A stretch of 64,000 bases of DNA from Bacteroidota bacterium (GCA_043811005.1 JBDRNO010000145.1:6008-70007), one strand, 5' to 3'. Positions 5,849 through 63,081 are shown, numbered from the stretch's first letter. Notes: a model not told the origin generated them from the sequence alone. Program-made: numbers and translations.

Positions 5849-5940
5849 TAACAACCCACCCCCGCCCCCTCCCAACATCCCACTTCACCCCCTTCTCCGC
5901 CTTAGGCGAATAAACAAAAGTAAAACAAGAACAACGAATT

Positions 5941-7872
5941 TTATTTAAGGAGGTTAGTAAAATATTCAAATACTATCTTGGCTTTCGCTTTTCCAATAAC
6001 CTCCTCTAATTCAATTAAATCAGCTTTTTTAATTTTTTTAACCGATTGGAATTTTCTCAGAAGTGAATGTGAAGAGCTTTTACCGATCCCGTCAATTTCA
6101 AGCAGTTCCGACTTGATGGTTTCACGGAGTCGTTTGTTACGGTGGTGACTGATACCAAAACGGTGAGCTTCATTTCTTAAATGCTGGATGACCTTTAAGG
6201 TTTCAGATTTTTTATCTAAATACATCGGGGTGGGATCTCCGGGGAAATAGATCTCTTCCAATTTCTTGGCAATACCAATTATCCCGATTTTGCCACTGAT
6301 ATTTAATTTATCTAAACTCTTCATAGCAGAGTTTAATTGACCTTTGCCACCATCAACTATGATCAATTGAGGTAATGAGCTGTTTTCATCTAACAGCCGC
6401 CTGTATCTCCTGTAAACCACCTCTTCCATTGACGCAAAATCATTTGGTCCCCGGACGGTTTTTATATTGTAGTGCCTGTATTGTTTTTTTAATGGCTTGG
6501 CATTTTTAAATACGACCATTGCAGCCACGGGATATGCACCATGTATGTTGGAGTTATCAAAGCATTCAATATGAACGGGAGGTTTTACAAGCCGCAGGTC
6601 TTTCATCATTTGTTTGAGGATACGGTTTGTATGCTTTTTGAGCTGTACCTTTTCAGCCGATCTCTTTTTTTCCAACATAAAGTATTTTGCGTTTCTTTCG
6701 GAAAGTTCAAGCAATTTCTTCTTATCGCCTCTTTGCGGGACAGTAATAGAGACAACTCCTCCCCGGCTTTCCCCAATGGGAAGGGAGAGCCAACGCGCAG
6801 GGTTTCCCCCTCCCTTTGGGAGGTGGTCAGGGGGTGGGCTGGTAATTATCTCCATCGCATCACTGTTAAACCTCTGCCTGAGTTCAGTAATTGCAACAGA
6901 CAGCAATTCTTCAGAACTTTCATCGAGTTTCTTTTTAAGTTCAATAGTATGAGACTGTACGATAGCCCCATTTATAACTTTCATATAATTCACATAACCC
7001 GCCCTTTGATCAGTGGCAATAGAGAACACGTCCACATTGTTTATCCGTGGATTTACAACCGTTGACTTGCTTTGGTATTTCTTTAAAAGACCGATCTTTT
7101 CTTTTACCTGATGAGCTTTTTCGAATTCAAGCACCTTGGCATATTTTTTCATCAGCCCTTTTAAATGCTTAAAAACCCTTTTGATATTTCCTTTGATTAT
7201 TTCTTTGATCTCTGATATTGCCTGATCGTATTCTTCTTCTGTTTGAAGACCTTCACAGGGGCCCATGCAGATACCTATCTGGTAATCCAGGCATAAACTG
7301 AATTTCTTCCTTAGGACATTTTCTTTGGAGAGATTATAATTGCAGGTTCTGAGTTTATATAGTTGTTTAATGAGGTCTAAAATAGTATTCATCATTCTTA
7401 CAGACGCATACGGGCCAAAGTATAGCGAACCGTCATCAACTTTCCCGGGGCGTGAAGAGGGAGAAAAACGGTTGTAACGGGGCACATTGCGAGTGGTAAA
7501 GACCCGGGGGAACCTTTCGTTTTTGATGCAGATCCATGGATATGTTTTATCATCCTTCAACTGAATGTTGTATCTCGGTTGACACTTTTTTATAAGGGTG
7601 TTTTCCAATAACAGGGCTTCCATCTCCGTATCTACAATAATATACTTAATGTCCCTGGTTTTTTTTACAAGAAGAGCAGTTTTCCCAAACACCCTTGTTT
7701 TTTCCCCTTCGGCAGGAGCAAAATAAGAAGAGACCCTTTTTTTTAAGCTCTTTGCCTTACCGACATATAGTAGATGGTTGTTGCTGTCAAGGAATTGATA
7801 TATACCCGGCTTATCAGGCAGGGAACTGATTATGTTTTTAAGGTGTTGGGTATATTTGATATGCGAGGTCAT
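5941..7872 (-). CDS. uvrC: Excinuclease ABC subunit C
   Basis: GIY-YIG N-terminus (PGIYQF..YVGKAK), HIECFDNS, DGGKGQL, HhH C-terminus. Confidence 0.97.
   Translation of the reverse strand: MTSHIKYTQHLKNIISSLPDKPGIYQFLDSNNHLLYVGKAKSLKKRVSSYFAPAEGEKTRVFGKTALLVKKTRDIKYIIVDTEMEALLLENTLIKKCQPRYNIQLKDDKTYPWICIKNERFPRVFTTRNVPRYNRFSPSSRPGKVDDGSLYFGPYASVRMMNTILDLIKQLYKLRTCNYNLSKENVLRKKFSLCLDYQIGICMGPCEGLQTEEEYDQAISEIKEIIKGNIKRVFKHLKGLMKKYAKVLEFEKAHQVKEKIGLLKKYQSKSTVVNPRINNVDVFSIATDQRAGYVNYMKVINGAIVQSHTIELKKKLDESSEELLSVAITELRQRFNSDAMEIITSPPPDHLPKGGGNPARWLSLPIGESRGGVVSITVPQRGDKKKLLELSERNAKYFMLEKKRSAEKVQLKKHTNRILKQMMKDLRLVKPPVHIECFDNSNIHGAYPVAAMVVFKNAKPLKKQYRHYNIKTVRGPNDFASMEEVVYRRYRRLLDENSSLPQLIIVDGGKGQLNSAMKSLDKLNISGKIGIIGIAKKLEEIYFPGDPTPMYLDKKSETLKVIQHLRNEAHRFGISHHRNKRLRETIKSELLEIDGIGKSSSHSLLRKFQSVKKIKKADLIELEEVIGKAKAKIVFEYFTNLLK
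6755..6840. repeat. Inverted doublet of CCCCTCCC/GGGAGGGG REP-like hairpins in-frame inside uvrC
   Basis: ctcctccccggctttccccaatgggaagggag ... tccccctccctttgggaggtggtcagggggtggg; encodes SPPPDHLPKGGGNPARWLSLPIGESRGGV. Confidence 0.75.
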
Positions 7873-13596: not shown

Positions 13597-16500
13597 TTAA
13601 TTTTTAATGATTCGCCTGTAATAACTCCGTCCGTTATAATTGATCTCTAAGAAATATAAGCCAGGGCTAAGACTTCCTATATTTTTAAAATTCAGGAAGT
13701 CTGACATTCTAAAAAGATGTATACCAGAAGCAGTTTGATTCTTCTCAATTATTTTTATCTTCTGTCCATGGATGTTCAATAAAGATACCTGAAAAGAACC
13801 TTCCTGGGGTAAATTTATAGAAACGTTAATTTCTAAAGAAAATGGATTCGGGTAAACCCGGGTCTCAAAACCTGCCTGTTCGTCTACTGGTGGAAACTCA
13901 TTTGTACCAGGAACTACATACTCTTCAACATTTATAAAGTTAGATTTTTGAATAGTGTCGGTGCATCCGTAATCATTGGTTATTATTAAAGTTACGGTAT
14001 AGTTTCCGGCAGTAGCATAAACATGCACAGGATTTTGAACAGTATCTGTACCACCATCTCCAAAATTCCAATCCCACATCCATGCATTGACGGAATTGTC
14101 GGCAAAATAAACAGTATCTCCCTCTTCTACAGTGGTTTGCGGAAATGCCTGGAAATTAGCAACAGGGCTTGGAAAAACCAATACCTGGTTTGTTACCGTA
14201 GCGCTGTCGCCACCAGGCCCTCCATAAGTATGTAAGGTAACAGTATAAGTTCCCGGGTTAATATAAGTATGGTTTGGGTTCTCAAAAATTGAAGTATTGC
14301 CATCTCCAAAATCCCATAAATAAGTGATCGCATCGATACTTGTATTTGTAAAGTCAACCAGCAGTGGGGCACAGCCGTTAAATGTTGAGGCGGTAAAATC
14401 CGCGGTTAACGTGCTTGATAGGGTAACGAGATTGTTACAGCTACCCGAACACCCGTTTGAATCAACAACTTCAACCTGTGCAAGATAAGTTCCGGCATTT
14501 AGATAGATATGAGCAACAGAATCTCCGGAACCCATCATTGCATCCCCGAAATTCCATATATAGGTGAATGGTGGCAATCCCCCGAAAATAACGGAAGCAG
14601 AAAAATAGGTGGGTTCACCTGTAATAAATGAATCGGCAGTGCAACTAATAACCGGAATGCCAACGACCGTAACAGTGATTGAGTTGGAAGTATCAACAAG
14701 GCCGCTTGAACAATTAAGAGTGGAAAAGACTATGCAATTCACCACGTCACTATCTGCAAGAGTTGAAGTAGAGAATGTCGGGCTGTTTGAGCCGGTAGGA
14801 ATTCCATTGACCTGCCAGAGGTAATTGGGGATTACACCGGCATCAGTAGTAGATGCGCTGAATGTGAGGGTAGTACCATTGCAAACCATGTTGGTGGTGT
14901 CGCTTGATTGAATAACCACAGATGGCTGGATGACGGGATTCACGGTTACTGTGAAAGTATCTGGGAAAGATATACCGGCACAGGAATTAATGGTTTGCAA
15001 AATTACATCATAAGTGCCTGCCGAGTCAAATGGGTAAGGTATTGATATGGATCCCGGGCCGGATACCGTATCAGAAGCGCCATTCCCCTGAATTATCCAT
15101 ATATAATCAGCAGCGGTTACAGAAGAGATGAACGTGCCCTGATCTCCTTCACAAAGCGAGTCGCTGGAAGAACCTATTGTTGGGTTCAGTCCGCTGCCAT
15201 TTTCATAAATTTCAATAAATTCATAATATGTGTAAGGAATTCCATTTACAACCATCGTAAAGGTTTTTCTTCCGGTTGTCGTAAATGTAGTTGTGGAAGG
15301 GCTGCCGCTTCCAAAAGAGGGTACAGCCCCGGCTCCATAATACCAGTCAATTGTTCCGGTTGAGGTGGTGGAAAAAGTAACAGGTGCGTCTGTATAACCT
15401 GAATATTTGATAAATACGAATGGTTGTTGTAAACTATTAATATTCATAAAGCTAACAGGGATGCCGGCGGGATCTTCATAAAGAGTGTAATTTACGCCAT
15501 TGGCGCCATTTCCTCCAGCTCCTCCGTCTCCGCCTTTACCGCCATTACCGCCATCACCTCCTGAGCCCACATAGCAATTACCATCCCCTCCTCTTGCACC
15601 TCCGTTACCGTTCAATCCACCAGTACCTCCTGCTCCGCCTAAACCACCTAAACCGGGGCTGCCGGGGGTTAGCTGGCAATCTCTGATAACACCGTTTCCT
15701 CCATTGGCATTGATATAAATAGCAAAAGACCCGCCACCACCGGTACCTCCAATCCCACCCTGTGCTGTCTGCCCTCCTTCGCCACCGCCACCGCCACCGG
15801 CACCGGAGCCGTTCCAATTTGGGGGCAAACCGAAAAGGCAATCATAAGGTATCCCTCCGAGAGAGCCACCACCACCTCCTCCGCCACCACCGGTACCATG
15901 TGTGCCTGCAGTGCCTGCAGTACCGTTGCCGGGAATAAAAAATCCACCGGCAAATATCTCTACTCCATCATTTCCTGGGGTTCCATCAGCGCCATCAGTA
16001 CCGTTAACTCCTGGGAAACCATCATGTTTATCAGGGGTACAAGTGACAGGATAATAGCAAACAATTACTTTCATACCGCCATTTCCACCGATACCACCAC
16101 CTGTTCCCGCTCCGGGTTGTCCGCTGTAACCATTAGTAGCATGAATGGGTTGACCGCATGCAAAAGCACAGTCAGCTGTTCCTCTTTCACCACCATCACC
16201 ACCATCTCCTCCGGCATTGCTCCCCACAAAAGAACCCGAAGCGCCATTACCTCCAAATGTACAGCAAGGACCTTGTTCATCTCCATCCTGTCCGGATGTT
16301 CCGTTGGCGCCTGCTATTCCATTAATACCATTTGTTCCATTATCCCCGTTACCTCCATTACCTGAAATAAATTTACACCTTATAATGTTATAATCAGAGC
16401 AATTGCCTAAATACAAAGCATAGGATGAAATTCCATTAGCAAAAGCGGCTGCGCTTCTGATGGTCAGGTCCTGCAGCCGGAAATTTGATATACTTATGCA

Positions 16501-16929
16501 ATACATTGCAACCAACCTGTTTGGTGATGGTTCAATGTTTGAGATATCCCTGTATATGGTGGTGGAAGTTGAATTGCTTTTTTCCCAGGTAATGGCGTCA
16601 AATCCGCCCTCGAGAGTAATATTGTTCAGCATATAAAGAGGATTATAGATAATATAAGTGCCGGAGGACATGTGTATTTTATTATCGGTTGCATTGACAA
16701 GAGTTAAGCCGTATAATAATTCTGCCGGGTTTGCCTTGGTTCCTGCTGCCCCGCTGGTGGCTCCGTTAGGGGTTACATAAACGATTTTGCATTCCTGGGC
16801 GAAAGCCCCTCCCTTGCCCTCCCAGAAGGGGAGGGAGAAAGGTATCGCACTGCAAATGATAGATATTACACAGTATAAAAGGAAGGATTTTATGTTTTTT
16901 GTTAAAGGCATTGTTTTTTTAATAATCAA
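13597..16929 (-). CDS. Secreted glycine-rich PKD protein with T9SS type A CTD; paralogue B
   Basis: Same N-terminal module as A and C (YVTPNGATSGAAGTKANPA), Gly tracts, PKD motifs, VYPNP CTD. Confidence 0.85.
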   Translation of the reverse strand: MIIKKTMPLTKNIKSFLLYCVISIICSAIPFSLPFWEGKGGAFAQECKIVYVTPNGATSGAAGTKANPAELLYGLTLVNATDNKIHMSSGTYIIYNPLYMLNNITLEGGFDAITWEKSNSTSTTIYRDISNIEPSPNRLVAMYCISISNFRLQDLTIRSAAAFANGISSYALYLGNCSDYNIIRCKFISGNGGNGDNGTNGINGIAGANGTSGQDGDEQGPCCTFGGNGASGSFVGSNAGGDGGDGGERGTADCAFACGQPIHATNGYSGQPGAGTGGGIGGNGGMKVIVCYYPVTCTPDKHDGFPGVNGTDGADGTPGNDGVEIFAGGFFIPGNGTAGTAGTHGTGGGGGGGGGSLGGIPYDCLFGLPPNWNGSGAGGGGGGEGGQTAQGGIGGTGGGGSFAIYINANGGNGVIRDCQLTPGSPGLGGLGGAGGTGGLNGNGGARGGDGNCYVGSGGDGGNGGKGGDGGAGGNGANGVNYTLYEDPAGIPVSFMNINSLQQPFVFIKYSGYTDAPVTFSTTSTGTIDWYYGAGAVPSFGSGSPSTTTFTTTGRKTFTMVVNGIPYTYYEFIEIYENGSGLNPTIGSSSDSLCEGDQGTFISSVTAADYIWIIQGNGASDTVSGPGSISIPYPFDSAGTYDVILQTINSCAGISFPDTFTVTVNPVIQPSVVIQSSDTTNMVCNGTTLTFSASTTDAGVIPNYLWQVNGIPTGSNSPTFSTSTLADSDVVNCIVFSTLNCSSGLVDTSNSITVTVVGIPVISCTADSFITGEPTYFSASVIFGGLPPFTYIWNFGDAMMGSGDSVAHIYLNAGTYLAQVEVVDSNGCSGSCNNLVTLSSTLTADFTASTFNGCAPLLVDFTNTSIDAITYLWDFGDGNTSIFENPNHTYINPGTYTVTLHTYGGPGGDSATVTNQVLVFPSPVANFQAFPQTTVEEGDTVYFADNSVNAWMWDWNFGDGGTDTVQNPVHVYATAGNYTVTLIITNDYGCTDTIQKSNFINVEEYVVPGTNEFPPVDEQAGFETRVYPNPFSLEINVSINLPQEGSFQVSLLNIHGQKIKIIEKNQTASGIHLFRMSDFLNFKNIGSLSPGLYFLEINYNGRSYYRRIIKN

Positions 16930-50327: not shown

Positions 50328-53300
50328 GTGAAACGTTTATTTTATATATCATTGGTTTTTCTGCTTTTTTCCGGAGGAATATTGTCTCTGAAAACATCTT
50401 TTTCGCAAACCTACAATTTTGATAACTTTTCGGTGGAAGATGGTTTGGTGCAAACCCAGGTTCTTTCAATATGCCAGGACAGCAAAGGATACATCTGGTT
50501 CGGGACGAATAGTGGGGGAATAAGCATCTATGACGGCAATAAATTCAGCTCTCTTACTAAATCAGACGGATTGGTGGATAATGTTGTATACTCTATTATT
50601 GAGGGAAAAAACGGCAAAATGTTCATTGGCACTACAGGTGGTTTAAGTGTATATGACGGACATGGTTTCACAAATTATACGGAAACTGATGGGCTTCCGG
50701 ATAATATGGTATTTGCTGTGCTGGAAGATGCGGAAAACAATATCGTTTGGCTTGCTACCACAAAAGGTATTGCAAAACTTGTAGAAGGAAAGATAGAAAT
50801 GTTTGACGGAGGCCCGGCACTGAATGATGTTCACGTATTTACTCTATATAAAGATAAGGAAGGCAATATTTGGTTTGGTACTGTAAATAAGGGAGCTATT
50901 AAATATGATGGGAAGAGTTTTACTGTTTTTAATACCGAAAAAGGACTGACCCATTCTTTTGTATGGACAATTATTGAGGATAAGGATGGCAATATTTGGG
51001 TTGGAACTATAAAAGGTCTTAACATCATAAACAAAAATAATAAAGTAGAGGAAATAAGGATAAATCAAGCAGAATCTCAACGGACAATCACATCTTCAAC
51101 ATTATCAAAAGACGGAGATCTTTGGTTTGGAACTAAAGTGGGGGCTGTTTTCTATGATGGCAGTACGTTCAAAAATTACAGGGAGCAAAACGGGCTTAGT
51201 ACTAATGATATATGGTCAATAATGCAAGACAGGGAGGGCAATATATGGTTTGGAACTATGGGAAAGGGAGTTGTTAAATTCAGGTATAAAGGAGAAGTGT
51301 TTAAAAATTATAGCCGGAAGGATTCCCTTCCTAATGATATGATTCATGTCATTTTTGAAGACAGTAAAGGGGATTATTGGCTTGGTTCCGAATCAGGCAT
51401 TGCCAAGATGACAAACGGGCAAATTAAGGTATTTACCAGAAAGAACGAGGATAATATTAATCTGGGAATTGCCACTAATACATATTCCGTTGCAGAAGAC
51501 CGTTCGGGAAATCTGTGGTTTGCAACAAGAGGTAGTGGCTTGTTCAGATATGATGGTTCTGATTTCAAAAAATACACCATAAATGATGGATTGAATGATA
51601 ATCTTGTCTATTCTATTCTGATTGACAACAAAGGAACAATGTGGTTTGGTACTGCAAAAGGGGTATCAAAAATGGAGAATGGTGAAATATCTGAATTTGG
51701 AGAGATAACAAAAATAAATATTTGGACAATATTCCAGGATAAAGAAAATAATTATTGGTTTGCCACTGAAAAAGGTGCATCAAAATATGACGGTACGAGC
51801 ATGCAGTATTTTACCGGCAAAGACGGTTTTGTTGATGATAGGGTGCTGACAGTTTTGCAGGATAACCAGGGATATTATTGGTTTGCAACCGATGAAGGTG
51901 TATTCTGCTACGATTCAAAAAAATTCAAAAAAATCAGTCAGGATGACGGATTGAGCTTCAATAAAATTTACCTGCTGGTGATGGACAGGAATGGAGACCT
52001 GTGGATAGGAACAACCAAGGGCCTGGACAAATTAGATGTGGAAGCTTATCATTCAAGGAATGAGATTAAACTAATCCATTATGGCAAAGATGAGGGCTTT
52101 ATCGGTTTGGAGTGTAATAGTAATGCCGGCTATAGGGACAGTAAGGGACATTTGTGGTTTGGTACGGCAAAAGGGGTAACCATCTTTAATCCCGATTTGG
52201 AGACAACCAATACAGAGGAGCCATTAACAAGCATTACCAATATCCGCCTGGAATTTGAGGATTTTGATTGGACAGAATTTTACGATACGATTGACCTGGT
52301 AACGAAACTACCCGTGAACCTTACACTTCCCCACAATAAAAATCACCTTACGTTCGATTATATCGGTGTGAGCATGACCATTCCAAAAAAGGTGAAATAT
52401 CAGTACAAACTGGTTCCGTTAGAAGATTATTGGCTACATGCAACCGATAAAAATGAAGCCGTTTATTCTCATATTCCTCCGGGGGAATATACATTTATGG
52501 TAAAGGCGATGAATAATGACGGGCTTTGGAACAAGCAGCCGGTAGAGTTTCTTTTCAGGGTCCTGCCTCCCTGGTATCAAACGTGGTGGTTTTACACGCT
52601 TTGTGTTGTAGTTGCATTTGCCGGTGTTTATTCTTTTATAACAATAAGAATGCGTAATCTTCAAAAACAGAAAAGAGTGCTGGAGGAGAAAGTGCTTAAA
52701 AGAACAGCAGAATTAAGGAAAGAAAAGGAAAAAGTGGAGCAGAGTAATATAGAAATTAGTAAAAAGAACAAGATCATTGAGACAAAGAACAAAGACATCA
52801 CCGATAGTATCGCTTACGCCAAGCGCATACAAGAGGCAATTCTTCCCTTGGACAATGAAAGATTGCGGCATTTTCCAGAATCATTTATTCTTTTTAAACC
52901 TAAGGATATTGTAAGTGGTGATTTTTATTGGCTTACTAAAAAGGATGAAATTGCAATCATAGCAGCAGCGGATTGTACAGGACACGGGGTTCCGGGTGCA
53001 TTTATGTCAATGATCGGCAATTCACTATTAAATGAAATAGTAATTGAAAAAGGTAATACCAAACCGGCAAAGATATTAGATGCTATGAAAGAGGGTATTA
53101 TCAATGCCTTGAAGCAAAAGGGCGAATCCGGTGAACAAAAAGATGGGATGGATATTGGGCTACTCGCTTTGAATTATTCAAAAAATACTGCTGAGTTTGC
53201 CGGGGCATACAACTCCTTGCTCCTGGCAAGAAAAGGCGAGCTGGAAGAAATAAAAGCTGATCGTATGCCCATAGGAATTTTCGAGGATGATGGCGGAAAA

Positions 53301-58300: not shown

Positions 58301-59623
58301 CTCGAAATCTACGACAACACCGCTTTCAACACTTATATACTTTGAATCCTGTCCCCCGATCTCAAAAATGGTATCAACTGATTGGTCATAATAAATAGTA
58401 GCTGTAGCTTGTGCGGTGATCTCATTTTGGATGATGTCGGCACCGATGAAATCTCCTGTCAGGTAACGACCCGAGCCTGTTGTCCCGGCAGCTTTTACTT
58501 CTACTTTATCCCCAACCTCTTCATAGATCTCGGATAAGCCACTTTGTATTGCATCAAGGGGTTTGCTTGCTGTTGGCAGATACCTTCGTGCAACCACATT
58601 GTTCTCATCATCAATTAAAACCACGTTGGTGCTAAGGGAGCCGACATCGAGACCGAGGTAAACACCGAGTTTCTCACTTCCGTTCCATTTAAGGACTATA
58701 TTATCCGGATACCTGTTACCGGACAATTTCAGCGGTTCCAGGTGAGAGCTGTCAGGTTTTTCATTAGTAAGATAAATATTAAGCTCTTTCAATCCCTTAA
58801 AAGGTTTTTCTGCCCCGGGAGGATGGTCGAGGATGTGAAACAGAGCGCCAATAGCGCCCATTGAGGCATGGTATTTCGGAATTATTAGATCGTCTTCCTT
58901 CAGGTTAAGGATTTCCCTGAAAGCACGAACCACACCGGCATTGGCAGCAACCCCTCCCTGGAAGATCACTGGTTTGGCAAGCTCTTTACCACGAGCCATA
59001 ATGCTCTTAAAATTACGGGCTACCGCAAAACACAAGCCGGCTACAATATCATGAACAGGTGTGGCAATCTGCTGGAGATGGATCATATCACTTTTGGCAA
59101 ACACACTGCACCTTCCGGCAATGTGTGGCGGGTTTTCCGATTTAAGGGCTAATTCGCCAAATTCATTTTCAATTGACACACCAATTCTTTTTGCCTGCTG
59201 GTCAAGGAAAGAGCCGGTGCCGGCTGCACAAAGGGTGTTCATAGCGAAATCAGACAAGCTGGATTTATGATCGACCTCTTTTCCTTCCATAAGTATGAGC
59301 TTGGAGTCCTCTCCACCTATTTCAATGACCGAATTGGCTTTGGGATATAAAACAGCTACGGAAGAGGATTGGGCAATTATCTCATTCACAAAATGACCCC
59401 CGATAAACTCTGCCGCAAGCTTGCCCCCGGTGCCGGTTATGGCTGTAATACCAATCTTTTCCGTCCCGTGTGACTCTATGATCTCTGAAAGGATATCTTT
59501 TAAAACAAGAAATGGCTTGCCGTGACAATAATTATAGCGATTCTCAACTATGTTCCTGTCTTTATCAATCAGTACCGTGTTGATTGATATAGAGCCGATA
59601 TCTAATCCTAAATGTAACTTCAT
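55361..59623 (-). CDS. Fused 2-hydroxyacyl-CoA dehydratase activator-like protein (two BcrAD/BadFG ATPase modules + DUF2229-like regions)
   Basis: Two sets of GLD.GS, EIGG.DSK, CAAGTGSFL and RC.VF motifs; CGPDS, PFSCLPG. Confidence 0.9.
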   Translation of the reverse strand: MKLHLGLDIGSISINTVLIDKDRNIVENRYNYCHGKPFLVLKDILSEIIESHGTEKIGITAITGTGGKLAAEFIGGHFVNEIIAQSSSVAVLYPKANSVIEIGGEDSKLILMEGKEVDHKSSLSDFAMNTLCAAGTGSFLDQQAKRIGVSIENEFGELALKSENPPHIAGRCSVFAKSDMIHLQQIATPVHDIVAGLCFAVARNFKSIMARGKELAKPVIFQGGVAANAGVVRAFREILNLKEDDLIIPKYHASMGAIGALFHILDHPPGAEKPFKGLKELNIYLTNEKPDSSHLEPLKLSGNRYPDNIVLKWNGSEKLGVYLGLDVGSLSTNVVLIDDENNVVARRYLPTASKPLDAIQSGLSEIYEEVGDKVEVKAAGTTGSGRYLTGDFIGADIIQNEITAQATATIYYDQSVDTIFEIGGQDSKYISVESGVVVDFEMNKVCAAGTGSFLEEQAEKLKINIKEEFGKMALNAQKPVRLGDRCTVFMESDLNSHQQKGVPKEDLVGGLAYSIVQNYLQKVVGDKRIGNKIFFQGGVTNNKAVVAAFEKILGKPVIVPPHFDVTGAIGVAMLARDKMNNEIGAKTRFKTFNISKTSFSIDKFTCKAKFNDKKEPCSNRCEIRRVKIEGSKKSLFYGGRCEKFEIKERKGKGKDIPNLFEERLKLLLGDYEKEAKNNRITIGITRGLSIFYQQFPFWRTFFRELGFHVVLSSPTDRPMVAKSLELLATETCLPVEIMHGHVHDLLKKNVDYVFTPFIVNQKAAKNNPTSNCNCPWIQSYPFMIRAALADNKDKEKLLIPTLHFRYTGRMLNKELSRFMSEKFGISKSKVVKAIRSADEAQDAFERAVEIRGQEALNDLPQDKEALVILGRPYNTGDPELNLRLAEKLINLDVLPIPVDFLPLDNEYIFNNYTKMYWPNGQKIISGSRIIAKDARLHAVYLGNFKCGPDSFLSHYVREEMRGKPYLQIEVDEHSADAGMLTRCEAFLDSLKGYRKVNIEKEKIYRPGKLLSAPTADRVLYVPYMCDGGYAMAAACRSCGIHAEVLPKQDETDIELGRKYTSSRECFPMICTTGSFLKKLMEPGCDPKKVSFFMPDHNGPCRFGQYNKLQKIIFNRAGFHDVNLISPSDENSYEDISGGKGTKFRFGAWKGFVAIDLLRKLLQERRPYEVVKGETDRVYQHWLQEVISSVERGTKDLAEVLKQAAKAFKGIKVANGIRKPVVSIVGEIFMRDNPYCSGFLVQKLEEMGAETLIAPFAEWISYSTYRYTRDSIWKRDIKGLFKSKTQQFSQSVSAKKYHNAIGDAAELEREIPVKEMLDLCGPYVHKDYDGDPAIAIGSAAGLTNTGISGIVNILPFSCLPGTLIESVSHVFRKDHDNIPWENIAYDGQDDTGIETRLEAFMHQAREYAKIKGYDKPREWPV

Positions 59624-59842
59624 CTCTTTTTTCTAATAATTTTTAAAGTATTTGCTTTTTTGCAATTAACAATCAGGTTCTGGGCTCTGGGTTCTGGTGT
59701 TGTGGTTTTTTACACAACCCCAAAATCAGCACATACCTCCCAGCACACAGTAACCAGCAACATTATCTTATTTATATTTAACTCAATTCAATATAAATTC
59801 TTTTTTCAACTTACAAAGATAATATTGTTTACTGATAAATAT

Positions 59843-59874
59843 TTTGTAAAGGAATATAAATCGGGTTATATTTG
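59843..59874 (+). promoter_or_regulatory. Bacteroidota sigma-70 promoter of the tRNA locus
   Basis: TTTG (59843-59846), 20-nt spacer, TATATTTG (59867-59874). Confidence 0.7.
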
Positions 59875-59888
59875 CACCTTCTTTCAAA

Positions 59889-59952
59889 GGGCGGTTAGCT
59901 CAGTTGGTTCAGACCCTCCCGATCCGCCAGCTGGCGGATCGGGAGGGTCTGA
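59889..59952 (+). pseudogene. Truncated tRNA 5' fragment running into a 44-bp perfect palindrome
   Basis: gggcggttagctcagttggttcaga matches the downstream tRNA-Val 5' end at 23/25; palindrome 59909-59952. Confidence 0.75.
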
Positions 59953-59978
59953 GGTTGTTGAAGAAGATAGAATATTAT

Positions 59979-60053
59979 GGGCGCTTAGCTCAGCTGGTTC
60001 AGAGCACCTGCCTTACAAGCAGGGGGTCACAAGTTCGAATCTTGTAGCGCCCA
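59979..60053 (+). tRNA. tRNA-Val(TAC)
   Basis: Acceptor GGGCGCT/AGCGCCC, anticodon arm cctgc-ctTACaa-gcagg, TTCGAAT T-loop. Confidence 0.96.
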
Positions 60054-60070
60054 CCTTCCATTTCTCCTAG

Positions 60071-60610
60071 TCAGGCATCACCTTGTTTTGCAGAAGGTAG
60101 GTGTACCCTATGTTTTGCAACAACTGCAAAGCAGGTATCTGCGAGATGTGGTTTTCTTTGAAAGATAGGGGTTTCATTTGTTTTCGTTATTGTTTCCCTC
60201 CTGGGAGGGGTTAGGGGTGGGTTCCCTACCCGGCACCCCCCCCTATGTTCAATTATCCAATTTTCAATAGTTCTTAAAACATTGGTCATCTCTTTTTTTA
60301 CTTCCCTATCATCAAATCTCAAAAATCTAACTCCAAGAGATTCCAACCTTTTCTGTCTTTTTACATCTGCTTTTTTCACTTCTTCTTTATCATGGCTACA
60401 GCCATCTATTTCTATTGCCAACATGAGGTCTTTGCAATAAAAGGCTACGATAAAATGATCTATTGGTCTTTGGCGGTCAAAATCGTAGCCCGGCATTTTC
60501 TTTTGTTTCAGTTCATTCCACAGCAATACTTCCGATAAGGTCATGTTTTTTCTAAGCTGCTTTGCTCTTTCTTTTAGTATGGGGTTGTATGGTATTATTT
60601 TTCTTTTCAT
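60071..60610 (-). CDS. DUF559 / Vsr-like endonuclease domain protein
   Basis: AKQLRKNMT.SE..LW, F.RQ.PI, AIEIDG.SH, RQ..LESLG..FLRF; the tail reads through a REP. Confidence 0.88.
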   Translation of the reverse strand: MKRKIIPYNPILKERAKQLRKNMTLSEVLLWNELKQKKMPGYDFDRQRPIDHFIVAFYCKDLMLAIEIDGCSHDKEEVKKADVKRQKRLESLGVRFLRFDDREVKKEMTNVLRTIENWIIEHRGGCRVGNPPLTPPRRETITKTNETPIFQRKPHLADTCFAVVAKHRVHLPSAKQGDA

Positions 60611-60671
60611 TTTTTCCTGTTTTTTCGGGAGGGGTTATTACCCACCCCTAAATCCCCTCCCGGGAGGGGAC
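60194..60671. repeat. Inverted pair of CCCCTCCC/GGGAGGGG REP-like hairpins bracketing the DUF559 domain
   Basis: ttccctcctgggaggggttaggggtgggt (about 60194-60222) vs acccacccctaaatcccctcccgggaggggac (about 60640-60671). Confidence 0.85.
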
Positions 60672-60897
60672 TTTTCGTTGTTGCTTCCATTGTTGTCAAT
60701 TAGTGTTTAATATTCTCTATCCAGCATTTTTCTTGAACTCACTGACTCCTCTTAATAATCTTCCGCAGAATCTTCTCTTCACCCACCTCAATTATTATGT
60801 CCTTTTTTATACGAATAACCCGTAACACGCAACAATAAGCAAATAGAATTTTAGTTATTAACTGTTTTTACAAGCGAAATAGTTACTGCTAAGGAAT

Positions 60898-61506
60898 TTA
60901 CACCCCTAATATCATAATCAAGACAGAAATAATACCGAGAAAGAACCCGGTGTAAATTTGAGCGGGGCAATGAGCATTTAGCTTTAATCGTGAAAACCCG
61001 ATAAACCCCGCACAAAGGATTAATAGCATAATAACAGCGCTAATATCCACCATAAATCGCTGTGAGATACCGATCATTGCCCCAAGCACCCCCCCGATAC
61101 CTATCATATGCATGCTTATCTTCCATCTTAAATTTATTATAAAAGCAATAATAATTGATAATATAGCGCCCAGAATTAACATATAAACTATAGGTGGTAA
61201 TGGTATTTGTTTTAAAAAAAAGTACGCAAAGCAATAATAAACAATTGCCAGCACGTAAGGGAATTTCCTTTCTTTAATCGTCTCCAGGTTCAAACTTCGA
61301 ATCGTTCCTTTTTTCATCAAAAAGATTGCGTTTATAACTGGCAAGAGAATGGTAAAAATAAATACAACCAGATATACTATTTTTTTTGATAAAGGAGGAA
61401 CAGAGTATGTTAAGTAAGTATCGGTGTTAAAGACTAGATAAAGCCCAAAAATTGGCATTATCAAAGGATGAAAAAGGAATGAAATGACTTTAGCGAATTT
61501 AGTCAT
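60898..61506 (-). CDS. Multi-pass membrane protein (PAP2-like)
   Basis: S..FHPL..P, ER..P, WKISMH, SRL.L.AH...Q...G. Confidence 0.75.
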   Translation of the reverse strand: MTKFAKVISFLFHPLIMPIFGLYLVFNTDTYLTYSVPPLSKKIVYLVVFIFTILLPVINAIFLMKKGTIRSLNLETIKERKFPYVLAIVYYCFAYFFLKQIPLPPIVYMLILGAILSIIIAFIINLRWKISMHMIGIGGVLGAMIGISQRFMVDISAVIMLLILCAGFIGFSRLKLNAHCPAQIYTGFFLGIISVLIMILGV

Positions 61507-61587
61507 TGGTGGATTGTGGAGTTAGTAAATCAACTAATTAATTGTATCGGAATTTTTATTTTTTAAACAAATTACGCAGCTATGTTC

Positions 61588-63081
61588 TCACAATTCTTTT
61601 CTAAGCCGTGCAACAGGAATGTTGAGCTGTTCACGGTATTTAGCAATTGTTCTCCGTGCTATGTTATATCCTTTTTCTTTAAGGATTTTGGTTAACTTTT
61701 CATCAGCTAACGGCTTCTTTTTATATTCAGCAGCGATACAGTCTTCGAGTATCTTTTTAATTTCTCTTGTAGAAACCTCCTCCCCACTATCAGTTTGCAG
61801 GGATTCGGAAAAAAAGGTTTTTAATAAGAATGTGCCAAAAGGGGTTTGAACGTATTTACTATTTGCAACCCTTGAAATTGTTGAAATATCAAGATTAACC
61901 ATTTCGGCAATGTCTTTCAGTATCATTGGCTTAAGCTTTGTATCATCCCCATCTTGGAAATATTCTTTTTGATAATTTATTATTGCTGCCATTGTCTTGA
62001 TGAGCGTTTCCTGTCTTTGTTTAATAGCATCAATAAACCATTTAGCAGCATCAAGCTTTTGCTTAACAAACATTAAAGTTTCTTTTTGTTTTTTATCTGG
62101 CTTGCCCTTTTTGTTTATATGATCCATCAGCATACTGGAATAGCTTTTGCTCACTCTTAATTCCGGGGCATTAGAGGAGTTTAAGCTCAGATCAAGCGCT
62201 CCGTCATTATTTACAATTGTAAAATCAGGAACAATATACTGAATTGGCTTTTGGCTTTCTGCCAATGAATTTCCGGGTTTGGGGTTTAGTTTTAATATCT
62301 CATCTATTGCGTTTTTTAATTTTTCGAGACTGATATTCAGCTTTACGGTTATTTTATCATAATGTTTTTTAGTAAACTCGATAAAATGTTTGTCAATAAT
62401 TTGCATTGCTGTTTTACCGGCTTCGTTATGTGGGGCTTTTCTTTTTAGTTGTATTCGCAAACATTCTCTCAAATCTCTTGCACCAACACCAGGCGGGTCA
62501 AAATCCTGAATGATCTCAAGTAATGATAGCAATTCGTCTTCAGTAGTAGCAATATTTTGAGAAAAAGCCATGTCGTCAACAATTGCGGATAAATGACGCC
62601 TCAGATAACCGTCATCATCAATGCTGCCTATCAGGTGCAACGCTTTTGCATATTGATCTTCATCTAAAATTTGCAATCCAAGCTGGCTTATAAGCAATTC
62701 GTGAAAGGTCATACTAACAGCGAAAGGAATTGTCTTGTTTTCTTCATCTCTACCGGCATTTTTTGCAGTTAATTTATAAGATGGGATATCATCATCATCC
62801 AAATAGTCAGTTAAATCAAATTCATCATCATTGTTTTTGCTTTCTTCTTGCAATTCCCCATCTTCGGTATAATCAAAATCTTCTGTATCATCAGATGAAT
62901 CGTCCTGTACTTTTTCATCATCTTCATCACTTCCTTCTTCAAGAGTGGGATTGTTCTCGATCTCTTCCTTTATTCTTTGTTCAAGCGCCACAGTAGGTAT
63001 CTGGAGCAATTTCATCAACTGAATTTGCTGGGGAGACAGCTTTTGCTGCAGCTTTTGTTGTAGCTTTTGCTTTAGCATCAT
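61588..63081 (-). CDS. rpoN: RNA polymerase sigma-54 factor
   Basis: Gln-rich region I, DPPGVGAR, STISR HTH, RpoN box ARRTIAKYR. Confidence 0.97.
   Translation of the reverse strand: MMLKQKLQQKLQQKLSPQQIQLMKLLQIPTVALEQRIKEEIENNPTLEEGSDEDDEKVQDDSSDDTEDFDYTEDGELQEESKNNDDEFDLTDYLDDDDIPSYKLTAKNAGRDEENKTIPFAVSMTFHELLISQLGLQILDEDQYAKALHLIGSIDDDGYLRRHLSAIVDDMAFSQNIATTEDELLSLLEIIQDFDPPGVGARDLRECLRIQLKRKAPHNEAGKTAMQIIDKHFIEFTKKHYDKITVKLNISLEKLKNAIDEILKLNPKPGNSLAESQKPIQYIVPDFTIVNNDGALDLSLNSSNAPELRVSKSYSSMLMDHINKKGKPDKKQKETLMFVKQKLDAAKWFIDAIKQRQETLIKTMAAIINYQKEYFQDGDDTKLKPMILKDIAEMVNLDISTISRVANSKYVQTPFGTFLLKTFFSESLQTDSGEEVSTREIKKILEDCIAAEYKKKPLADEKLTKILKEKGYNIARRTIAKYREQLNIPVARLRKEL

Follow-up and report, generated by a model that had tools for sequence, protein, structure and literature searches.

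A DUF559 nuclease gene bracketed by inverted triplex-type hairpins in a Bacteroidota bacterium: a candidate selfish cassette with in-frame relatives

INTRODUCTION

RAYT (TnpA-REP) genes encode HUH Y1 transposases and are flanked by inverted repetitive extragenic palindromes (REPs), an arrangement termed a "REPtron." Here, we examine a locus of comparable outline in a 64,000-nucleotide (nt) stretch of DNA from a Bacteroidota bacterium (JBDRNO010000145.1, 6008-70007, of GCA_043811005.1; hereafter, the window), in which a small gene for a Vsr-like nuclease of the DUF559 family sits between two inverted hairpins near a tRNA-Val gene. An original prediction from the sequence had read these hairpins as REPs and proposed a nuclease-REP partnership analogous to that of the RAYTs.

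Two other bodies of work bear on this locus. Holder et al. described in 2015 an intrastrand triplex motif (TM; earlier PIT/boxC) with the consensus CCCTCNCCC N3-6 GGGNGAGGG N3 GGGNGAGGG and a second loop of TTA or CCG, which they reported in >260 genomes (PMC4666352). On the nuclease side, Kosinski et al. in 2005 grouped the Escherichia coli DUF559 member, YcjD, with Vsr among the PD-(D/E)XK nucleases (PMC1189080), and Vsr-like EDxHD homing endonucleases have been described as I-Bth0305I (PMC3239194) and in "fractured genes" (PMC2677866). As developed below, we lean toward the reading that positions 60195-60670 of the window are one copy of a selfish nuclease cassette, made up of a Vsr-like DUF559 gene with TM ends, that spreads by homing-like copying.

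RESULTS

The DUF559 gene lies between inverted copies of one element

The gene and its ends comprise the following features.

60071..60610, minus strand: open reading frame (ORF) of 179 amino acids for the DUF559 (Vsr-like PD-(D/E)XK) protein, with the domain at 60260-60574
60640..60670, minus strand: element at the 5' end of the cassette (with respect to the gene), a triplex-type motif with a stem of 9, 0 mismatches, and its tail toward the gene
60195..60222, plus strand: 3' terminal element of the cassette, an inverted copy of the 5' element
60627..60634, no strand assigned: additional arm GGGAGGGG between the 5' element and the start codon, read directly
60223..60245, no strand assigned: G-rich stretch GGGGGGGGTGCCGGGTAGGG (gene strand) immediately inside the 3' element, flagged as a G-type tail

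The predicted protein matches Pfam DUF559 (PF04480) over residues 13-117 (E 7.3e-28; 97.1 bits, with a cut-off of 20.6) and, over residues 23-115, the "endonuclease-like protein" of PDB entry 3hrl (E 6.3e-12). On the gene strand (60670-60640), the 5' element consists of the hairpin TCCCCTCCC/GGGAGGGGA, a TTT loop, and the tail AGGGGTGGG; it can also be parsed with a TTTA loop and the G-tail GGGGTGGGT, and its plus strand reads ACCCACCCC-TAAAT-CCCCTCCC-GGGAGGGG-A. The 3' element reads T-CCCTCC-T-GGGAGGG-G-TTA-GGGGTGGG-T on the plus strand, which gives the hairpin CCCTCC(T)GGGAGGG, a TTA loop, and the G-tail GGGGTGGG; on the gene strand (60222-60195) it is ACCCACCCC-TAA-CCCCTCCCAGGAGGGA, and in this direction it is translated as part of the ORF. 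By its sequence, the arm at 60627-60634 could form an alternative hairpin with CCCCTCCC at 60654-60661, and the G-rich stretch beside the 3' element is possibly a degenerate second motif with a CCG loop.

Matches to CCCTCCCRGGAGGG with at most 1 mismatch numbered 5, at 3 sites, compared to 0.01 expected, and the 12-mer tail occurred twice in the window compared to 0.18 expected, a count that 2 of 100 shuffles attained. These shuffle controls exclude a chance origin of the window hairpins. When the window stretch was searched with Rfam, the tRNA alone matched, with no family for the hairpins and no intron. Direct reading, ORF calling, and Pfam all bear out the predicted pair of inverted hairpins with G-tails around a DUF559 gene near tRNA-Val, coordinates included.

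DUF559 genes and the hairpin family are partners across genomes

We compared the source genome (G000; an assembly of 4.6 Mb, 83% complete) with 40 relatives of the same class. DUF559 was found in 25 of these 41 genomes, at up to 10 copies per genome, and 54 full-length copies were analyzed, with 8 partial or weak rows left out. A loose motif finder was run together with controls; a motif was scored within 170 nt of a copy, and control windows lay at least 500 nt away at the same loci. By this measure the motif was present in 72 of 108 DUF559 flanks versus 29 of 768 control windows. It stood upstream of 35 copies, downstream of 37, on both sides of 27, and on neither side of 9, with 45 of the 54 having it on at least one side. 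All four copies in the source genome are bracketed by a hairpin with a G- or C-tail.

The two ends of a cassette also resemble each other more than they resemble other ends. Among 49 copies (5 were dropped for short flanks or N), the mean alignment score of a copy's own left end against its own right end was 20.2, compared to 11.4 for ends from other genomes and 12.1 for ends of other cassettes in the same genome. More than half of the own pairs (26/49) exceeded the 95th percentile, and 18/49 were the best in their row; the window copy scored 22, where the 95th percentile of mismatched pairs is 17.

At the level of whole genomes, all 10 with at least 15 matches to the pattern GGRGRGGN{2,5}GGGGDG are DUF559 positive, while the 16 genomes without a DUF559 match have 0-11 such matches; the pattern misses variant motifs, and the genomes are related, so these counts are not independent. 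After subtraction of a reversed-pattern control, 8 genomes were in excess by at least 10, all of them DUF559 positive. The motif is thus less abundant where DUF559 is missing and is enriched beside DUF559 genes, so the condition under which the original prediction would have been refuted does not hold. DUF559 genes and the hairpin family form a non-random partnership.

The association reaches E. coli K-12, where the DUF559-annotated gene ycjD is followed, about 170 nt downstream, by a published-type TM and carries a degenerate one across its stop codon. Between the two motifs lies a partial duplication of the gene's own 3' end; the 5' side carries an AT-rich hairpin only.

The cassette, from element to element, is the unit that recurs

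The closest relatives of the window copy are found in two genomes of the same family (G006 and G001), where the gene is fused to the 3' end of thiE, followed by G028. In pairwise comparisons with each, similarity to the window copy spans the stretch between and including the two elements and drops to about 45% outside it, and the contexts differ. Because similarity starts at the 5' element and stops at the 3' element, we take the unit to be approximately 60195-60670.

Two diverged SpoIIE-phosphatase paralogues in one genome (G013) carry cassettes that are 97-100% identical in DNA apart from one patch at 82%, with identity falling to 45-55% directly after the G-tail. As judged from the alignment, no other case shows as clearly that a cassette was recently copied into the matching site of a diverged gene. 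The patch itself is a single 60-nt tract (alignment columns 180-240 of L039 against L040), which suggests a short conversion tract from a third copy.

Terminal inverted repeats, a criterion for miniature inverted-repeat transposable elements (MITEs) and insertion sequences, are present, and the cassette contains no transposase of a known family, its only ORF being DUF559. The orientation of the ends varies with context. Most free-standing copies, the window copy included, have tails that point inward, while copies in frame with a host gene have a C-tail/hairpin upstream and a hairpin/G-tail downstream, with tails outward.

Many cassettes are in frame within host genes

Seventeen of the 54 copies are in frame with host genes, the internal ones at recurring sites (LeuRS, SpoIIE phosphatase, HsdR, and RecJ) with empty counterparts in relatives, as follows.

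Internal (14 copies): LeuRS (five), SpoIIE (three), HsdR (two), RecJ, family III CoA-transferase, a MeaB-methylmalonyl-CoA mutase fusion, and an Eco57I/MmeI-type enzyme
C-terminal (2 copies): ThiE
N-terminal (1 copy): SpvB/TcdB-like protein

The N-terminal case (L038, G013:C20) is a large SpvB/TcdB-like protein with FG-GAP repeats. The frame is open across both host junctions in all 14 internal copies, and a search of 16 host frames for intein families at E<=1e-5 returned none. Because both junctions are open and in frame and no intein family is detected, the insert is evidently translated and not spliced at the protein level, as far as the sequences indicate. The ends of in-frame cassettes encode linkers rich in Pro, Ser, and Gly.

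One insertion point is a site in LeuRS (site 1) between NWIGRSEGA..F and EVFTTRPDT, where 4 genomes, each of a different family, carry the insert. In the other genomes the site is empty and the two halves of LeuRS adjoin, including 6 of 7 genomes from the same family as the source genome; the seventh (G007) gave no informative LeuRS match. The LeuRS site 1 copies thus resemble homing elements in occupying a conserved host site with empty alleles in relatives; the window copy is intergenic. A further genome (G030) has a solo motif at site 1 in the same frame, which encodes ASPRPSPKER where the source genome has LSPGPSPKERG. One supported clade of the DUF559 tree (97/89) unites six in-frame copies, which come from three genomes and sit in four host genes.

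The hosts in the source genome are leuS (C240) and a TPR-SpoIIE gene (C33), and the assembly, 83% complete, yielded no second leuS. Within this leuS (L001, C240 at about 50835-50846) the frame changes in a run of 11 A, and the remainder of LeuRS is intact in another frame; the change is likely a homopolymer assembly error or else a slippage site.

Searching a global protein collection with the insert of the source genome, we obtained 630 longer proteins at E<=1e-10. Among the 120 of these that were listed, Pfam assignments gave 94 of LeuRS type, 12 of acetyl-CoA synthetase type, 5 RecJ, and 2 MetH. Source names range from Flavobacteriia isolates to Patescibacteria, and LeuRS proteins with the insert include those of Salegentibacter salegens and Joostella sp. 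In the LeuRS of a Candidatus Uhrbacteria (Patescibacteria), the insert occupies the same site and is joined by the same hairpin-coded linkers. We compared host and insert identity between the LeuRS of the source genome and that of Patescibacteria; the LeuRS core is itself well conserved, so this comparison does not separate out cross-phylum transfer.

The hairpin is of the published triplex-motif type

By its layout, the hairpin repeat belongs with the intrastrand triplex motif of Holder et al. (PMC4666352). The original prediction was right to see a repeat family here; it is a published one, though, and not a new kind of REP. The G-rich tail mirrors the hairpin's own purine arm, with A answered by T or A. 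In 38 hairpin-plus-G-tail elements of the source genome, which were selected without using this rule, 72 of 80 A positions were mirrored (null mean 0.69, maximum 0.825 in 200 permutations), and the overall match was 0.946 compared to a null mean of 0.811 and maximum of 0.854.

The 5' element of the window fits the TM layout with 0 mismatches, as GGGAGGGGA / TTT / AGGGGTGGG. The window stems (CCCCTCCC) have a hairpin loop of 0-1 nt, outside the published N3-6, with the layout and the TTA loop as published; other copies in the source genome are closer to the published consensus. Triplex formation has been reported in vitro, for the E. coli sequence only (PMC4666352).

Solo motifs and doublets are dispersed through the source genome

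The motif family in the source genome yielded 125 finder hits, compared to 22 and 26 in two shuffled genomes; with stems of at least 7, the counts are 69 compared to 6 and 5. The family numbers about 60-70 copies, many of them inside long open frames. The whole 4.6-Mb assembly contains just two copies of the exact 12-mer tail, and both belong to the window gene. Dispersal, as originally predicted, is therefore a property of the motif family, while the exact variant beside the window gene is confined to two copies.

Two dispersed members lie in the window.

6755..6840, minus strand: doublet from the same repeat family that lacks a nuclease and lies in frame within uvrC, with a C-tail/hairpin, an 18-nt spacer, and a hairpin/G-tail
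16807..16835, minus strand: solo motif of the triplex type that is in frame with ORF 13597..16929(-) and falls in its N-terminal signal region, with a perfect hairpin and a mirror tail

The doublet is translated within uvrC (5941..7872, minus strand) as SPPPDHLPKGGGNPARWLSLPIGESRGGVV, and its layout is that of the in-frame DUF559 cassettes from end to end, minus the nuclease. The prediction had singled out both of these places, and both proved to hold genuine elements of the same kind, the first a true in-frame doublet. A third place it had named, near 5854-5875, is a degenerate case: the purine arm and G-tail are present at 5851-5875, and a matching pyrimidine arm is missing.

Elsewhere in the source genome, AlaRS carries two solo elements in frame. 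Two motif pairs were checked for other small genes between them, and both enclose host sequence (AlaRS and a glycosyltransferase-like ORF).

The window copy is an ordinary, probably decaying member

One further feature lies within the domain.

60443..60445, minus strand: codon GCC (Ala56) where the (I/V)-x-D-F motif has its conserved Asp, one base from GAC

Asp occupies this position in 30 of 31 aligned DUF559 copies, the window copy being the sole exception, and Ala56 aligns to the IVDF of 3hrl. By analogy with the PD-(D/E)XK fold, this Asp would be catalytic. The E-x-D-G..H motif is retained. The window ORF begins with an ATG of its own, preceded in frame by a TAA 9 codons upstream, and it has no stop ahead of the 3' hairpin, so that the frame continues through the hairpin to 60071. 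On the DUF559 tree its branch is 0.29, compared to 0.07 and 0.14 for its sisters. Because the conserved Asp is lost and no stop precedes the 3' end, the window copy, a DUF559 member by descent, is probably inactive and decaying. It is an ordinary free-standing intergenic member, of value as a way into the family.

In three loci of relatives that have the neighboring membrane-protein gene, there is no tRNA-Val and the other neighbors differ. Public DNA reads over 58800-62200 gave short pieces only, from the organism and from a relative about 95% alike. One contig (run X4) lacks a single base at 60500 inside the ORF, at a depth of 3.67 of 7.18, which is too thin to count.

Neighboring tRNA gene and other repeats of the source genome

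A tRNA gene lies outside the cassette, 140 nt past the 3' element.

59979..60055, plus strand: tRNA-Val(TAC)

Within the DNA covered at each locus, a tRNA was found beside DUF559 at 1 of 54 loci; we therefore reject a tRNA association of the cassettes and regard the proximity of tRNA-Val as incidental. Upstream, at 59889-59913, is a 25-nt copy of a tRNA 5' end (acceptor and D arm) that is close to the downstream tRNA-Val; it is ended by a 42-nt palindrome, has no 3' half, and was called by neither ARAGORN nor Rfam.

This perfect 42-nt palindrome (59910-59951), just upstream of tRNA-Val, is centered on the 14-nt palindrome CCGCCAGCTGGCGG, which occurs 137 times in the source genome and 0-2 times in each of the 40 relatives. 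The 14-mer stands at the apex of many unrelated hairpins, among them triplex motifs, REP units beside a Y1 transposase, and terminator-like stems, and at the ends of 3 of the 4 DUF559 cassettes in the source genome; the long variable arm of a tRNA-SeC(TCA) called by ARAGORN (C95, about 2482-2562) is made of it. From this distribution, it looks as if a very small palindrome with hairpin tips as its target has multiplied in a burst specific to this lineage.

Several longer repeat families in the source genome terminate in a triplex-type motif. One is a repeat of about 110 nt (...CCATTTTCCAGCGGATG...GATGATGTGTTGAGCG.TGGGTCTCCCTCTCC...), a longer MITE-like family with a triplex-type end that is present in at least 15 places (C75:26116, C101:44018, and C309:9510 among them).

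The source genome also has a classical RAYT/REP arrangement (L081, C158 15430-15771), in which a Y1 (IS200/IS605-type) transposase gene has arrays of CTCATGGCGTCAGCCATGAG and GCCCCGAAGGGGC repeats on both flanks. A RAYT as the true partner of the triplex hairpins was considered and rejected: the C158 transposase has other REPs, and a second Y1 transposase, on C164, has none of these motifs.

DISCUSSION

What we observe is an association of DUF559 genes with a hairpin family, ends that co-vary within each cassette, sharp unit boundaries, recent copying, in-frame residence of one lineage at sites that relatives have unfilled, and singlets and doublets of the same repeat without a nuclease. We suggest with moderate confidence that the window cassette is one copy of a selfish element of the following kind. 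The DUF559 nuclease would nick or cut DNA at TM structures or next to them, or else at empty sites; repair templated by the filled copy would then spread the cassette in a homing-like gene conversion; and solo TMs would be its non-autonomous derivatives or its landing pads. A broader proposal is put forward only tentatively, namely that a Vsr-like nuclease cassette with triplex-forming inverted repeats may live unspliced in essential proteins (LeuRS, RecJ, HsdR, MetH, and acetyl-CoA synthetase) and may spread within genomes and across phyla by structure-directed cutting and repair.

Several points weigh against the homing-like reading. The literature consulted, PMC1189080 among it, contained no nuclease activity or target for any DUF559 protein. 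The in vivo footprint reported by Holder et al. does not support a stable triplex (PMC4666352). Nine of the 54 copies lack a detectable end motif, the precise variant at the ends of the window copy has not dispersed, the genome counts come from related genomes, and the genome with the most pattern matches (G032, 123) has a single DUF559 match with an internal stop. No target-site duplication is visible at the LeuRS junctions. No empty site for the window copy was found when the neighboring membrane-protein gene was sought in 8 genomes of the family, the source genome included, and among contigs of 4 public read runs none spans the cassette. The DUF559 domains at LeuRS site 1 do not form one clade, which argues against simple sequence-specific homing by a co-evolving nuclease; site choice therefore does not simply follow nuclease lineage.

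The nearest competitor is a strict counterpart of the REP/RAYT system, in which DUF559 would be a domesticated, single-copy nuclease that works in trans on solo hairpins, spreading or maintaining them throughout the genome, and the adjacent hairpins are simply its nearest substrates. The concentration of motifs in DUF559-positive genomes speaks for it (at least 15 pattern matches in 10 of 25 such genomes versus none of the 16 without a match), as do the 69 motifs with stems of at least 7 in the source genome versus 6 and 5 in shuffles and the finding that the DUF559-adjacent variant predominates in two genomes (G032 and G030). We nevertheless consider it unlikely, since DUF559 is multi-copy (up to 10 per genome) and is copied along with its own ends, end pairs are specific to the cassette and not to the genome, the window variant has no other copies, G032 pairs its 123 matches with a stop-containing DUF559 only, and the Y1 transposase of the source genome has its own, different REP arrays. 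In addition, PD-(D/E)XK nucleases are not known to have strand-transfer chemistry. The partnership foreseen in the original prediction is thus real, while its nature is not quite the one foreseen: the cassette itself recurs in new contexts, which is more homing-like than a domesticated transposase acting in trans would be. Less probable still is that the hairpins are independent, structure-prone repeats and DUF559 a host repair or resolution nuclease, or a gene that lands at recombination hot spots, with no nuclease-driven mobility. Such a view would suit E. coli, which has 23 TMs and one DUF559 gene with the motif on one side only, and where TM sites are tied to genomic instability (PMC4666352); the Vsr family is, moreover, a repair family (PMC1189080). 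It leaves unexplained why cassettes reside within 14 host genes and keep the frame at both junctions, the identical cassette that ends exactly at the tail in two diverged paralogues, and the co-variation of ends cassette by cassette.

We give little credence to a role of the flanking hairpins as expression signals (a terminator, an insulator, or mRNA-stabilizing stems) kept for the regulation of DUF559. Both hairpins do lie within about 100 nt of the ORF ends, and GC-rich stems can stabilize a transcript; the same ends, however, flank translated copies in the middle of host ORFs, no U-run follows the hairpins, no Rfam family matches them, and earlier work cited by Holder et al. saw no promoter or terminator activity of the motifs (PMC4666352). 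That GC-rich palindromes and a small gene are neighbors by coincidence in an AT-rich genome has a negligible chance of being correct: nothing beyond the low complexity of the motif favors such an artifact, and the shuffle controls, the scarcity of motifs in control windows (29/768), and the mirroring of the purine arm by the tail (72/80 A positions) refute it.

If the proposed nuclease cassette is what it appears to be, it would supply a source and a mechanism for the TM/PIT/boxC repeats, which have been catalogued for 25 years without one, and a role for the large, uncharacterized DUF559 family, E. coli YcjD included. It would also add to introns and inteins a third mode by which a nuclease gene can reside inside an essential gene, as a tolerated in-frame domain with hairpin-coded, Pro/Gly-rich linkers. 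The idea is directly testable, as cultured hosts exist (Salegentibacter salegens and Joostella sp., as well as E. coli K-12 with ycjD near a TM). We found no description of a DUF559-hairpin or in-frame cassette in the literature, subscription journals and supplements being outside the search.

Comparison with known systems

The cassette is only loosely RAYT-like. It shares with REP/RAYT a small nuclease-type gene between inverted palindromic repeats that are also dispersed in the genome, but the gene is a PD-(D/E)XK Vsr-like DUF559 gene and not an HUH Y1 transposase (PF01797), it is multi-copy and moves with its ends, and the repeats are in frame inside ORFs. The Rickettsia palindromic elements, attributed to Ogata et al. 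in 2000, reportedly are short palindromic repeats that lie in frame in protein-coding genes and are translated. They share this feature with the present repeats and differ in sequence and in the triplex-type tail, and they are not known to have an associated nuclease gene.

With the TM of Holder et al., the hairpins share a common architecture (pyrimidine arm, short loop, purine arm, 3-nt loop of TTA or CCG, and a mirroring G/T strand). The commonest variant in the source genome, CCCTCTCCTTCGGAGAGGGCCGGGGAGAGG, is close to the sequences in Table 1 of that paper (PMC4666352), and inverted pairs occur both in E. coli and here. The window 5' hairpin is loop-less where the published one has N3-6. 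In E. coli the TM is reported to be always intergenic, whereas here many copies are in frame within genes; and Holder et al. never found transposase or integrase remnants near TMs and report no mobility gene there, whereas here the motif forms the ends of a nuclease cassette (PMC4666352). The words "DUF559," "endonuclease," and "ycjD" do not occur in the text of that paper.

Vsr-like homing endonucleases resemble the cassette as selfish nucleases of the Vsr fold that occupy conserved sites in essential genes, with the sites unfilled in relatives (PMC3239194, PMC2677866). Theirs lie in group I introns or between split inteins and are spliced out, whereas here no intron or intein is detectable and the insert appears to be translated in the host protein; the terminal triplex-type inverted repeats have no counterpart there. 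A parallel case of residence inside a gene is ShiLan, from actinophage DNA methylases (Arsenault, Gosselin, and Gogarten 2025, PMC11855218), which is likewise an actively homing in-gene insertion that keeps the host frame free of stops, has no detectable self-splicing element, and is thought to be tolerated as a loop. ShiLan differs in that its HNH nuclease is encoded out of frame, it has no terminal hairpin repeats, its host is a phage, and one gene family is targeted.

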